64,000 nt of DNA from a virus (taxonomy: Duplodnaviria > Caudoviricetes), in the IMG/VR virus record IMGVR_UViG_3300027813_000012, positions 3,958-67,957 of that record, one strand, 5' to 3'. This document shows positions 1 through 10,554 of this stretch, one piece after another (positions within the stretch are counted from its first letter, which is position 1; the number at the start of each line of letters is the position of its first letter). The notes under the pieces were generated by a model. That model was given only the letters and a program-made list of their open reading frames with translations, did not search any database and was not told the DNA's origin. Position numbers and translations under genes: made by a program.

Positions 1-725
1 AGCTCTTGTTTTAAGGCGTTACCAGCTTCATCAGCATCGACTGCTAAAATTATCTTAGTCTTATCTTCAAAGTAATCTATACACGTGTCTAGATAATCTA
101 AGTTGTTTGTGTTAAGTGTAGCACCGTTAGGTACCGACACCGCATTCTTTATACCAGCTTCGTGTAAAGCTAATACATCCATTTCACCCTCAACAATCAC
201 ACAAGAATCATAACCAACTAAACTATTAATATTAAAAAATACTTTTTCGGCTCCTTTAAATAACTTAAAGTTTTTCCTGCCGTCTCTATATTTAATATTA
301 ATGAGTTGATCACCCATCATATAATTGAATTTAATTGTGTTCTCGGATTTCCCTGTTTGTGGCATAAACTCAGGACCCTCACTGACGTTACAGTCAGTAA
401 GAGTTTTCTGAGTAATACCTCTTGTTAAAAACCAATCTACAACTTTGCTACTTGGAGCTTTATACTCAACCGTCTCTGGCCTCATATAAACCTTTTCACT
501 AGCGCCTTTACGTTGGTACGTATGGAGCTGAAAACTAGTATTACAATTGTGACAAGTACCGAGACCCCGTTCCCAATCATAAGAAGCACATTTTGCTTTC
601 TGATTTTTGGGTTGTCTATCGTGTGAGCAAGAAGGGCAAATACCCTGAGTCTTACCAACGTCTAGACTATGTTGATTGAATTCGTCAATCAAAAATCCAT
701 TGATCTCTATTTCTTCTACCGTCAT
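1..725 (-). CDS. DNA primase-helicase (T7 gp4/Twinkle-like), N-terminal part; runs off window start
   Basis: Manual translation from ATG 725: MTVEEIEING..GICPSCSHDR..CHNC (Zn finger), IVEGEMDVLAL and ILAVDADEAG (TOPRIM). Not in ORF track because no stop in window. Confidence 0.9.
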   Translation of the reverse strand, partial: MTVEEIEINGFLIDEFNQHSLDVGKTQGICPSCSHDRQPKNQKAKCASYDWERGLGTCHNCNTSFQLHTYQRKGASEKVYMRPETVEYKAPSSKVVDWFLTRGITQKTLTDCNVSEGPEFMPQTGKSENTIKFNYMMGDQLINIKYRDGRKNFKLFKGAEKVFFNINSLVGYDSCVIVEGEMDVLALHEAGIKNAVSVPNGATLNTNNLDYLDTCIDYFEDKTKIILAVDADEAGNALKQE

Positions 726-2622: not shown

Positions 2623-2659
2623 ACGGTGAACACCATTTAACGTGTTTCCGCTCTATAAC

Positions 2660-3442
2660 TTAAAGATAATCAAGCACTTGCTCGTGATCGACGTTATCAA
2701 TAAGTTTTTGTACAGCTTGTCTTTTTAGCTGTGATACTCTAACGTAAGATGAACTGCCTTCTATTTTTAATTGGCTAGCTATTTCTTTTGCTGAATATTT
2801 TTCACTGTTTAAACCGTAACTCAATGTCAACACTTGGTATTCCCTTTCTGTTAGATGTCTTCTCAAAAGACTATCTAAATAAGCGTTTAATAATTGAACA
2901 TTGTATGGTTCTGATTTATCTGGTATTTGATGTGTCATATTCTCATCATCATTTGGCTTGTCATCTATACTCAGAAAAATAGAATTAAAAAACATTGAAA
3001 CCATTTTTTTATCTTTACCAAAGTTCCTACGTATTTCATTTAGCTTATGTTCAGGTATTCTCATGTCACCACGATTAATATCTATTGCTCTACGTATTTG
3101 TCCTCTTATTCGTTTAGATAAAAACGATTTTATTGTTTTTTCTTGATCTTCAGATGCCTTAAGCAGTAACATATCTAACCGATCTACTGCTTTAATTAAA
3201 CCTGAACTACCTTCTTGTATTAGGTCATTTATTGTCATAACACCAGAGGCTTGTTGTGTTGTGGAGAACTTCCTAGCTATATTTTCTACCAAAGGCAGAA
3301 ACATGGTTATGGCTTGTTCTTTGTTTAGATTAGTAAATTCGTTATTTTCTGCATCATCTTTAAGATGTGCTGGAAGAGCTCTTATAGATGCGGTGATGTC
3401 TTTCTTCCACCTAACATAATTTACAACGTTATATTTCTTCAT
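2660..3442 (-). CDS. Phage-encoded RNA polymerase sigma70-family factor
   Basis: Region 2 (LPLVENIARKF, DLIQEGSSGLIKAVDR, KRIRGQIRRAI) and region 4 HTH (LTEREYQVL..KEIA..RVSQLKRQAVQKL). Confidence 0.9.
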   Translation of the reverse strand: MKKYNVVNYVRWKKDITASIRALPAHLKDDAENNEFTNLNKEQAITMFLPLVENIARKFSTTQQASGVMTINDLIQEGSSGLIKAVDRLDMLLLKASEDQEKTIKSFLSKRIRGQIRRAIDINRGDMRIPEHKLNEIRRNFGKDKKMVSMFFNSIFLSIDDKPNDDENMTHQIPDKSEPYNVQLLNAYLDSLLRRHLTEREYQVLTLSYGLNSEKYSAKEIASQLKIEGSSSYVRVSQLKRQAVQKLIDNVDHEQVLDYL

Positions 3443-4037
3443 TTAGTAATGTTTTTTCTTGTTTTAAATCGTTACACATGTTTCTGTAAATTGTTCTTTG
3501 TGACACACCTAGTAGATTTGACATTAAACGAGTTGTTATTTTTTGATCCATGTGATTAATATCTAACATGCATTGATAAATCGTTTCTTTATTTAGTTTG
3601 CTTCTACCTATTAACTGTCCTACAATTTTTAACTTACCACTCAAGTCTAATCCTGAGTAATCTTTGAAAATTACCTTACGTAATTTATTGGAAGGCGGTT
3701 CGCCACCCTGTCTAATAACGTCTTTTATCATGCCATTTAATATTATGTCTTTGATAAAAAATGTTACAAAACCATTATCTTTATTAGCTATATATTTACA
3801 TAAAGCTGTAAAGTTTGATTCTTCTTCGTTTAAATAATACAAAACTAAGAAGTGCCACTTTAAAGATTTATAAGTAGTTATCTTAGCCTTACTGTTAAAT
3901 AAATGGTAGCATTCATATGTACCATTCTCGTAATAAGAATAGTCTTCTGTATCTATAGTAGGTGTATCACTAATAGGATCTCTTCTATATACGATACGCT
4001 TATCATTTAACCATTGTATTCTTCTTTGTTGTGACAT
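3429..4037 (-). CDS. Hypothetical DNA-binding protein with C-terminal HTH
   Basis: C-terminal ITTRLMSNLLGVSQRTIYRNM HTH-like pattern. Confidence 0.55.
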   Translation of the reverse strand: MSQQRRIQWLNDKRIVYRRDPISDTPTIDTEDYSYYENGTYECYHLFNSKAKITTYKSLKWHFLVLYYLNEEESNFTALCKYIANKDNGFVTFFIKDIILNGMIKDVIRQGGEPPSNKLRKVIFKDYSGLDLSGKLKIVGQLIGRSKLNKETIYQCMLDINHMDQKITTRLMSNLLGVSQRTIYRNMCNDLKQEKTLLNEEI

Positions 4038-7868: not shown

Positions 7869-7878
7869 ATTCTGTTTG

Positions 7879-7951
7879 AGCGAAAAGTGGGACTCGAACC
7901 CACAACATTCACCTTGGAAGGGTGATGCTCTACCAATTGAGCTATTTTCGC
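7879..7951 (-). tRNA. tRNA-Gly(TCC)
   Basis: GCGAAAA/TTTTCGC acceptor, TCACC-CTTCCAA-GGTGA anticodon arm, GTGGG-TTCGAGT-CCCAC T arm, U73; CCA not encoded. Confidence 0.95.
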
Positions 7952-7957
7952 TGTTAG

Positions 7958-8031
7958 GTGCGCCAGGAGGATTCGAACCTCCGACCTCTAGGTTATGAGC
8001 CTAGCGAGCTGACCATCTGCTCTACAGCGCA
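7958..8031 (-). tRNA. tRNA-Met(CAT), initiator-like D arm
   Basis: CTAGG-CTCATAA-CCTAG anticodon arm, GAGC/GCTC D stem (A11:U24), GGAGG-TTCGAAT-CCTCC T arm. Confidence 0.9.
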
Positions 8032-8037
8032 ATAAGT

Positions 8038-8115
8038 TACCGGTTGTCACTACGACTGGCTTTGTACAAAAGAACCTTAAGGAAGCCAAGGCGTCGATTT
8101 ACTGTTAAACCGGTA
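8038..8115 (-). ncRNA. 78-nt structured element B in RNA array
   Basis: Nested stems TACCGGTT/AACCGGTA, CGAC/GTCG, TGGCTT/AAGCCA; no ORF. Confidence 0.55.
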
Positions 8116-8120
8116 TTTAG

Positions 8121-8213
8121 TGGAAGTGGGCGGAATCGAACCGCCGTTTTGAAACATTCCTGAGTTCATAACGATCCCTCACCAGTTCAGTTTCAACTTA
8201 CCTTATCACTCCC
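8121..8213 (-). ncRNA. 93-nt tmRNA-like tRNA-like domain (Ala identity) with no mRNA-like region
   Basis: GGGAGTG/CACTTCC acceptor with G3:U70 and A73, stemless D-loop, TTGAAAC/GTTTCAA helix, 3-nt linker, GGCGG-TTCGATT-CCGCC T arm. Confidence 0.7.
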
Positions 8214-8216
8214 TTT

Positions 8217-8294
8217 TCGAGGTGCCAGTCGCGGACCGGTACTAACTAGTATTATGCTTTATCCGCGCTTTTGACCAGTATGCCGCCACCTCGA
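8217..8294 (-). ncRNA. 78-nt structured element A in RNA array
   Basis: Nested stems TCGAGGTG/CACCTCGA, CTGGTC/GACTGG, GCGGA/TCCGC, TACT/AGTA; no ORF. Confidence 0.55.
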
Positions 8295-8338
8295 TTGCTA
8301 GCTATTCAGTTATGTGTAGTGCAATACTACCTGTTAAC

Positions 8339-8509
8339 CTACTCGTCTAGCGTATTTTTATTATATAGCCTCACAGCTTCTCTAATATCTTCTATATTAT
8401 AGTCTATTAGTATTCTATATGCTTTTTTGTTTGGTGCATGAGTATGTAAAACCTCTTTATGTTCATTTTCTTCTTGCATTTCAAACCATTTTTTTACTGA
8501 ATCACTCAT
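8339..8509 (-). CDS. Hypothetical protein (56 aa)
   Basis: Manual ORF MSDSVKKWFEMQEENEH..NTLDE. Confidence 0.5.
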   Translation of the reverse strand: MSDSVKKWFEMQEENEHKEVLHTHAPNKKAYRILIDYNIEDIREAVRLYNKNTLDE

Positions 8510-9773: not shown

Positions 9774-10332
9774 AAATAGCATTGATTCTAACGTATTATT
9801 GTTATATCTCAACCAATATTGTCTTTCTATAGCTTCTATCTGCTTAGAATTGATACTAAGTATCTTCTTGTGTTTAAATTTTCTCATAAGTAATATCTGT
9901 TTAGATAGTCAGTCATCGCTTGATTTATTTCTTGATTAGTCATTTTATTATACATAGCTCGCTAATAGTTTTATTAGTTCAACGTATGATAAATCACCGT
10001 CTATATACATAGTGAAGTAGTCATTATTATCATTCATTGTTTTCTATATTTAGGATTTCTTATTAATTCTTTAACTATCGCCACTTGTTCTTCTTCAGTA
10101 CACGTAGCGAAGCCGAACTCGCCGAATAGTTCCTCAGCGATTTTGTTCATGTTGTTTAAAGTACACATATTAAAATCCGTAGTGACTTGTTGCACCGTTT
10201 AAAAGGTGAGTTATTACTGATACTAGTCCCACCACAAACATTGCTGATAGTGTTCCTATCCATATTTTGACTACTGTTGATAGTAGTTGATGTGTGAATT
10301 TTCTTGTTGCTTTATTGCTCATAGTTATTTAT

Positions 10333-10554
10333 TTATTTAATTAGTATTGTTTGTAGGTTTAGTTCATCAGGATTAGTGATGGTATATTTAATATTATTCA
10401 TATCGAGTATGTATATTGTTTGTATAAAGTTACAAGTGTATTCAAAGAGTATAAATTTATAGTCTGAGTTGAATATTTCAGGTTGATCTTCTTGATCTTC
10501 CATATAATGAATTTCTTCATTTGGTAGTAGTTGTTGTAGATTTTTATAAGTCAT
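10333..10554 (-). CDS. Hypothetical early protein
   Basis: ORF track; start follows a motif-1 copy. Confidence 0.6.
   Translation of the reverse strand: MTYKNLQQLLPNEEIHYMEDQEDQPEIFNSDYKFILFEYTCNFIQTIYILDMNNIKYTITNPDELNLQTILIK

Follow-up and report, generated by a model that had tools for sequence, protein, structure and literature searches.

Trans-translation is the main ribosome-rescue pathway of bacteria, and how phages deal with it has been little studied. The locus described here raises the question of whether a 93-nt stretch of phage DNA, in which the two ends of a tmRNA appear to be joined without the message between them, is an RNA gene in its own right, and what such a gene would do in the infected cell. 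The window, that is, the whole stretch of DNA analysed (64,000 nt; positions 3,958 to 67,957 of IMG/VR virus record IMGVR_UViG_3300027813_000012), covers most of a 67,957-nt record rated as complete by CheckV, with a GC content of about 35%. Matches of its large terminase were confined to phages of Flavobacterium, Cellulophaga, Tenacibaculum and Maribacter and one uncultured record, and the host is therefore probably a marine member of Flavobacteriia; GroEL and an ATP-dependent ligase are among the other products of this genome. Coordinates of all features are those of the window and are collected in Table 1.

Table 1. Coordinates of the mini-tmRNA, its parts and the neighbouring RNA modules
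Feature	Position	Strand	Description or evidence
mini-tmRNA (TLD-only tmRNA-like RNA)	8121..8213	minus	93 nt; sequence, fold, RF00023, covariation
Acceptor 5' strand	8213-8207	minus	GGGAGUG
D-loop	8206-8197	minus	no stem, 10 nt, contains GG
Closing helix P2	8196-8190 with 8155-8149	minus	7 bp, UUGAAAC/GUUUCAA
Nucleotides enclosed by P2	8189-8156	minus	34 nt
Hairpin element in P2 loop	8156..8189	minus	34 nt, 19-nt loop core at 8162-8180; recurrence in other contexts
Linker	8148-8146	minus	AAC, 3 nt
T arm	8145-8129	minus	GGCGG-UUCGAUU-CCGCC
Acceptor 3' strand	8128-8122	minus	CACUUCC, giving G3:U70
Discriminator	8121	minus	A73
3' trailer	8118..8120	minus	CUA, in place of CCA
Module A	8295..8345	minus	helix and internal loop, small variable hairpin; coding/non-coding shift, helix covaries by eye
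Module B	8214..8294	minus	81-nt H-type pseudoknot, 5' leader abutting G1 of the mini-tmRNA; alignment covariation
Module D	8032..8117	minus	structured spacer RNA between mini-tmRNA and tRNA-Met; conservation, compensatory changes by eye
tRNA-Met (CAU)	7957..8031	minus	directly downstream; ARAGORN, Rfam
tRNA-Gly (UCC)	7878..7951	minus	last gene of the RNA cluster; ARAGORN, Rfam

Anatomy and detection of the tRNA-like domain

The 93-nt element, here called mini-tmRNA, is a tmRNA-type tRNA-like domain (TLD) with the alanine identity set and without a tag-coding part. Every feature listed by the first-pass annotation of the sequence was found on the minus strand, and unconstrained folding of 8121-8213 returned exactly this structure at -27.7 kcal/mol, with a z score (-1.9) that is modest taken alone. 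All features of the TLD in RF00023 are present (7-bp acceptor with G3:U70, stemless D-loop with GG, T arm and A73), and the assignment of alanine identity was borne out by the retention of G3:U70 and A73 across four acceptor classes of relatives. It had also been claimed that tag, anticodon and pseudoknots are lacking, which agrees with the 34 nt enclosed by P2: no anticodon arm, pseudoknot or tag frame was found within the 93 nt, the mRNA-like domain (resume codon, tag frame and stop codon) is absent, no tag was found by ARAGORN, and the PK1-PK4 pseudoknot ring is missing from the P2 loop, with about 273 positions of RF00023 deleted in the alignment. The pseudoknot nearby, module B, lies outside the gene, 5' of G1. 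The anticodon arm and D stem of an ordinary tRNA-Ala were not found, and neither ARAGORN nor the Rfam tRNA model made a call. Since the trailer reads CUA and not CCA, the CCA end must be added after processing. The D-loop, of the type designated class 1, is without the UUUUGAC-type motif found in 20 class-Bacteroidia tmRNAs, which makes its affinity for SmpB uncertain.

The search with ARAGORN and Infernal that had been proposed with the annotation gave a divided result. At a permissive threshold, RF00023 aligned globally to the element with 37.1 bits, where the gathering score is 47; E was 4e-13 for a search of 1 kb and 6.5e-15 per genome, and model positions 1-20 and 340-374 were aligned at high posterior probability. 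Within the clan it ranked above the tRNA model, and relatives of the element scored 33-40 bits. ARAGORN, and Rfam at the gathering threshold, did not see the element and reported only the two adjoining tRNAs, so that the TLD-only class escapes standard annotation. A covariance model built from the relatives gave 81.9 bits and a single copy in the 67,957-nt genome, a score that is partly circular because the window copy was included in the seed alignment. A two-piece (permuted) tmRNA (RF04321 and relatives) was rejected, as the gene order is not permuted; the sole RF04321 match (24.1 bits, E = 0.01) came from a spurious pairing of the T arm of the mini-tmRNA with that of tRNA-Gly.

The marine family and its known counterparts

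Relatives were collected by exact-pattern scans of uncultured marine viral contigs. A pattern for both TLD halves retrieved 7 loci, and the 5' 17-mer alone 30 viral loci, 28 of which carry the same 3' half although the pattern did not demand it. A second class (GGGCGUG/CACGUCC, with a different T stem) was reached via a neighbouring motif in 92 further stretches, a third acceptor form (UGGCAUG/CAUGUCA) was found in L167, and L270, L277 and L286 contributed a fourth class (GGGGGUG/CACCUCC), which has the canonical UGGUUUUGAC D-loop known from class-Bacteroidia tmRNAs. Together with the class of the window (GGGAGUG), the collection comprised 114 copies of 68-185 nt, with 99 unique sequences, plus the fourth class in its three additional contigs. 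In marine metagenomes of nine studies, 60% or more of the words sampled from the locus were present. By blastn, no copy was found in GenBank phages, and the family model gave no match in three relatives known from culture or assembly, Elemovirus, Callevirus phi38:1 and MW202828.

Compensating changes separate the classes at 1:72, 4:69, 5:68 and several T-stem pairs, while G3:U70 and A73 are fixed. The collecting filter itself had demanded G3:U70, and a recount was hence made by 3' sequence alone, in which G3 was present in 81 of the 82 distinct class-2 3' halves and A3 in one. The sole exception belongs to a tandem of mini-TLDs (L128, ~80-160, plus strand), whose upstream copy, directly 5' of a class-1 copy, has the acceptor strand GGACGUG with a Watson-Crick A3-U70 pair and has lost the alanine determinant. 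The covariation in homologous phage loci that the first-pass annotation had named as a check was found in P2, with double changes at 7/7 pairs (47 cells) and a score of 0.225 against 0.069 in shuffles; none of 500 shuffles scored as high, and no slid register came near. These figures are from the alignment-based count, used because constrained single-sequence folds placed the P2 register inconsistently across the family. CTA starts the trailer in 104/114 copies, no class encodes CCA, and no member has an anticodon arm. Natural variation thus marks the key nucleotides, with G3:U70, A73, the T arm and the D-loop fixed, the helix covarying and the loop free for cargo.

No full-length tmRNA sibling was found at the same spot in 124 related loci; the sole tmRNA call by ARAGORN among them is a spurious frame. 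A recent deletion from a full-length gene at this spot was accordingly rejected, and the description of the element as a tmRNA with its tag region deleted did not hold, the 34 enclosed nucleotides being a conserved hairpin and not a scar. The homologues are conserved copies and reveal neither a decayed tRNA nor a full tmRNA, two of the findings that had been named as fatal to the annotation. Judged by these substitution patterns, the mini-tmRNA is a conserved RNA gene under selection for the tmRNA-type fold and alanine identity. A further tRNA-like element, ~118 nt long, was noticed in L004 (~10250-10370, plus strand) and L121 (~2640-2750, plus strand), with a normal T arm and an A/U-rich acceptor (UAACUAG/CUAGUUA), on which ARAGORN makes no call.

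The form had been thought new to phages, which proved incorrect, because 'Mycobacterium phage DS6A (TLD only)' is already listed by Hudson, Lau and Williams (PMC4131195) and appears in the tmRNA database paper of 2025 (PMC11915505); its entry in the tmRNA Website is tmID 11587. According to the former authors, a molecule similar to it strongly inhibits tmRNA, perhaps by titration of SmpB, and in the database paper the DS6A form is reported to have inhibited the endogenous tmRNA of E. coli; both papers cite Mao et al. 2009 for the DS6A RNA. We located the element at NC_023744 28478-28560 (plus strand; 83 nt), where it is unannotated in the RefSeq record. Both RNAs are phage-encoded, of about 80-90 nt, and consist of a complete TLD with a G3:U70 acceptor, a stemless D-loop, a single closing helix, a T arm, A73 and a CUA trailer, without a tag frame, and both score under the RF00023 gathering threshold (43.2 bits for DS6A vs 37.1) and are missed by routine annotation. 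Beyond the TLD plan no sequence relationship exists between DS6A and the marine family, and the host phylum is another. DS6A keeps the canonical UCGAC motif in its D-loop, unlike the class-1 D-loop of the window, whereas the marine family has at least four acceptor classes, lengths of 68-185 nt, swappable loop hairpins and, as an associated module, a pseudoknot leader. The experiment in E. coli concerns DS6A; the marine family is known here from its sequences. The marine TLD-only family is therefore a large, unannotated and elaborated version of an already known kind of phage RNA, which adds an environmentally widespread group, from phages whose nearest cultured relatives infect marine Flavobacteriia, to a single published phage case.

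Two other groups of tmRNAs bear on its interpretation. Genes for tmRNAs without a coding sequence occur in jakobid mitochondria (RF02544) and two plastids (Mallomonadaceae), where SmpB is kept as well and the RNAs probably assist in dealing with incomplete mRNAs (PMC11915505). They are likewise TLD only and without a tag frame; they differ in being ~65 nt long, in being cellular or organellar genes that serve their own ribosomes, and in having no loop cargo, and the SmpB partner of the mini-tmRNA would be that of the host and not its own. Full-length phage tmRNAs are known from phi38:1 and Calle and from the mycobacteriophage Bxz1 group, and two-piece forms from Melnitz and pelagimyophages (PMC8776804, PMC9004378). 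The full-length forms, of about 360 nt, contain pseudoknots and a tag frame, and their scores exceed the Rfam threshold, none of which applies to the mini-tmRNA. That of Cellulophaga phage phi38:1 (KC821614 26803-27164, minus strand; 362 nt, 87.6 bits) has a CUAA trailer, as in the window, and this phage infects Flavobacteriia and has related terminase and GroEL (PMC8776804, PMC9004378). Full-length and tag-less forms thus both occur among phages of Flavobacteriia.

The RNA island and the inserts in the P2 loop

The mini-tmRNA lies in an RNA island of 468 nt (7878-8345), in which module A, module B, the mini-tmRNA, module D, tRNA-Met and tRNA-Gly follow one another almost without spacers. Module B, for which no match was found in Rfam, was present in 43 viral contigs by its exact core pattern (e.g. 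L002, L003, L145-L169), some copies being 107-192 nt long through an inserted variable hairpin. In alignment A2 (32 sequences), 92.8% of the cells were paired and 10 pairs had double changes, with a covariation of 0.283 against 0.124 in shuffles and 0/500 shuffles as high. Its 3' end falls exactly at G1 of the mini-tmRNA or of tRNA-Met, depending on the phage, and neither module A nor module B was found within 450 nt upstream in 53/98 mini-tmRNA copies. Module B is therefore a separate leader-type module and not part of a composite tmRNA. Such a composite of message, pseudoknot and TLD (modules A and B and the TLD) had been prompted by a short stop-rich stretch in module A and by an Infernal truncated-mode match of module B to the tmRNA pseudoknot region (L002, 19 bits), and was rejected as the general case on the same two observations; in addition, substitutions in module A that look like codon changes are matched across a helix, and a 5' extension on the acceptor end would be sterically unlikely.

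Module A has a closing helix that covaries by eye (without a formal count), two conserved stop-rich single-stranded stretches and a slot for a variable hairpin (L005, L008, L111, L117, L119, L127). At its 5' edge it runs into the stop codon of ORF 8339-8509. The first 12 nt of the module form the final codons of the upstream ORF in some phages, whereas in others the stop codon precedes them, which points to conservation at the RNA or DNA level. In many relatives (including L005, L008, L003 and L111-L130), a conserved ORF of ~60 aa with four cysteines (CxC...CxxC, zinc-ribbon-like) terminates shortly upstream of module A; in the window, its place is taken by the 56-aa ORF 8339-8509, common to L110, L118 and L125. 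Module D is 87-94% identical in 13 other loci, shows compensatory changes against L002 by eye, and has related sequence (parts) within the mini-tmRNA loop in L153, L223 and L225. tRNA-Met, called in 52/124 related loci, is by far the commonest tRNA beside mini-tmRNAs. It has initiator-like traits in the window and in L003 (1334-1406, minus strand), namely A11:U24 and a weak U1-A72, with three G-C pairs next to the anticodon loop in L003 and two in the window. The island is a source of undescribed structured RNAs, among them a new covarying pseudoknot and mobile hairpin modules.

The 34 nt enclosed by P2 are a conserved hairpin element in their own right, and this looks new. All 34 nt recur unchanged within a class-2 mini-tmRNA (L218) and, away from any TLD, in L205, L227 and L231, and L235 matches at 33/34 positions. 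The 19-nt core has a single copy in the window and was matched exactly in 33 viral contigs, on differing covarying stems that include the variable hairpin of module A. Among the 99 unique mini-tmRNAs, 55 unrelated interior types were counted, the smallest of about 25 nt, and 7 types are common to both TLD classes. This sharing between classes and contexts indicates that interchangeable structured inserts dock in the P2 loop. The TLD may partly serve as a scaffold, or else the hairpins may be mobile and settle in tolerant loops, and the conservation of these hairpins hints that the payload, and not the TLD alone, is under selection. A 14-nt motif starting with GGAAGUG was seen in many variable hairpins (L005, L110, L111, L113, L155, L171, L195, L205); by pairing with the class-1 acceptor 3' strand it could take the place of the 5' strand, and in L171 ARAGORN mistakes it for a tag.

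Proposed role and competing explanations

We give an even chance to the proposal that the mini-tmRNA is a functional phage gene, a tag-less TLD-only homologue of tmRNA that competes with the trans-translation of the host. It joins the anatomy, conservation, covariation and lack of a tag frame observed here with charging, SmpB binding and inhibition as known from DS6A and tmRNA biochemistry. The RNA would be transcribed along with the neighbouring small ORFs and RNA modules; no convincing sigma-70 promoter or terminator of its own was found by a scan that does not cover Bacteroidota promoters. One RNA-library contig spans 8058-8308, with the whole mini-tmRNA and both flanks, and may be DNA carry-over; these contigs have low depth, and 8121-8190 was covered in 1/4 runs. 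Host RNase P would cut at G1 and a 3' endonuclease behind A73, and the CCA end would be supplied by the CCA-adding enzyme of the host; encoded CCA was present in 2/20 sampled class-Bacteroidia tmRNA genes. No gene for SmpB, a GGQ release factor, a CCA-adding enzyme or a tyrosine integrase was found in the CheckV-complete genome. Host AlaRS would then alanylate the RNA through G3:U70 and A73, and host SmpB and EF-Tu would bind it as the TLD of a tmRNA. In the current model, an Ala-TLD-SmpB unit enters the A site (PMC3929946). Having no message, the mini-tmRNA cannot direct tagging, and it would draw SmpB, AlaRS, EF-Tu and stalled ribosomes away from host tmRNA, with the outcome that trans-translation is blunted and phage proteins are less often tagged for proteolysis. 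The tmRNA-type anatomy, selection for alanine identity, P2 covariation, family size, host dependence and the DS6A precedent are in favour of competition; the class-1 D-loop off the host consensus, a 3' half that is not typical of Bacteroidia and the conserved loop contents speak against a simple decoy, and the full tmRNA of phi38:1 suggests that phages of this group can also profit from supplying trans-translation instead of blocking it.

The main rival to competition is productive rescue without a tag, in which the alanyl mini-tmRNA and host SmpB would enter stalled ribosomes and accept the nascent chain, and a host factor would resolve the complex without a degradation tag, so that phage proteins from broken mRNAs are freed and ribosomes recycled. 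A role as decoy or in tag-less rescue is what the literature proposes for DS6A, the sole published phage example. The anatomy and identity set fit rescue equally well, the organellar forms that persist with SmpB provide a parallel (PMC11915505), and the full tmRNA kept by phi38:1-like relatives suggests that rescue capacity is useful; yet this genome has no release factor or ArfB-like GGQ gene, so that release after transfer would hang on some host activity, and the DS6A form is reported as an inhibitor in the passage cited above. We regard tag-less rescue as possible, if unlikely. In MALAT1 mascRNA and engineered tRNA scaffolds, RNA that is joined to a tRNA-like fold or placed within it is processed by RNase P and stabilised, and the TLD of the mini-tmRNA might similarly serve as a scaffold or punctuation element, mainly providing RNase P and 3'-end processing sites and stability, with the loop hairpins and modules as the functional parts, for example as protein binding sites or decoys. 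The recurrence of the 34-nt insert in the other TLD class and as free-standing hairpins, the 19-nt core on different covarying stems, the 7 shared interior types, module D inside the TLD loop of other phages, and the near absence of spacers, with module B before either mini-tmRNA or tRNA-Met, would all be expected of a scaffold. Processing, however, requires neither the G3:U70 wobble and A73 retained over four acceptor classes nor a tmRNA-type D-loop, and most copies are without module A or B upstream. To our knowledge, tRNA-like processing or scaffold elements (mascRNA, engineered) do not keep an aminoacylation identity set, and we know of no natural phage example with swappable inserts in a tRNA-like scaffold. 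We judge the scaffold explanation improbable; it and competition are not mutually exclusive.

Two further explanations have less in their favour. A role as decoy, either for an anti-phage system of the host that recognises or cuts acceptor/T-arm modules of tmRNA or tRNA or for another tRNA-binding host factor, would be in keeping with a tRNA-like RNA in a phage early region beside tRNAs; it appears very improbable, as no defence or counter-defence gene was identified adjacent to the mini-tmRNA, and the known anticodon nucleases would have no target in an RNA without an anticodon loop. That the element is a relic, left by the decay of a tRNA-Ala or tmRNA or as an attP site after integration at ssrA, we hardly credit at all. 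Integration at ssrA, with the 3' end of that gene carried along, is common among phages, and the 3' 27 nt of the mini-tmRNA equal the 3' end of the tmRNA gene in two Bacteroidales metagenome-assembled genomes; against a relic, both acceptor strands are present, P2 covaries, more than 110 copies are conserved, there is no tyrosine integrase, and no mini form was found among 100 cellular loci sharing the 3' 22-mer. An attP or ssrA fragment was rejected on the acceptor strands, the covarying helix and the missing integrase, and a decayed tRNA on the conservation pattern. Descent as a copy of the host TLD was likewise unsupported: the 3' 22-mer was exact in 1/401 sampled class-Bacteroidia genomes, so that the mini-tmRNA is not a copy of a typical host TLD, and the acceptor stems of 20 sampled class-Bacteroidia tmRNAs differ from its own.

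A further reading concerns the loop contents. The mini-tmRNA and modules A and B may be RNA scaffolds that display a shared, recombining repertoire of hairpins, with an alanylatable TLD delivering or anchoring its cargo (here the 34-nt element) at SmpB, EF-Tu or stalled ribosomes; the message of tmRNA would then have been replaced by exchangeable RNA modules and not merely lost. This reading is speculative, and we consider it rather unlikely. The members of the family are ready constructs for asking whether phages block, bypass or re-use the tmRNA-SmpB system. Two short features of the cargo in the window were also recorded: on the minus strand, the 19-nt core contains a Shine-Dalgarno-like GAGGG followed after six bases by AUG, and UUAUGA within it and the anticodon loop of the neighbouring tRNA-Met(CAU) are complementary.
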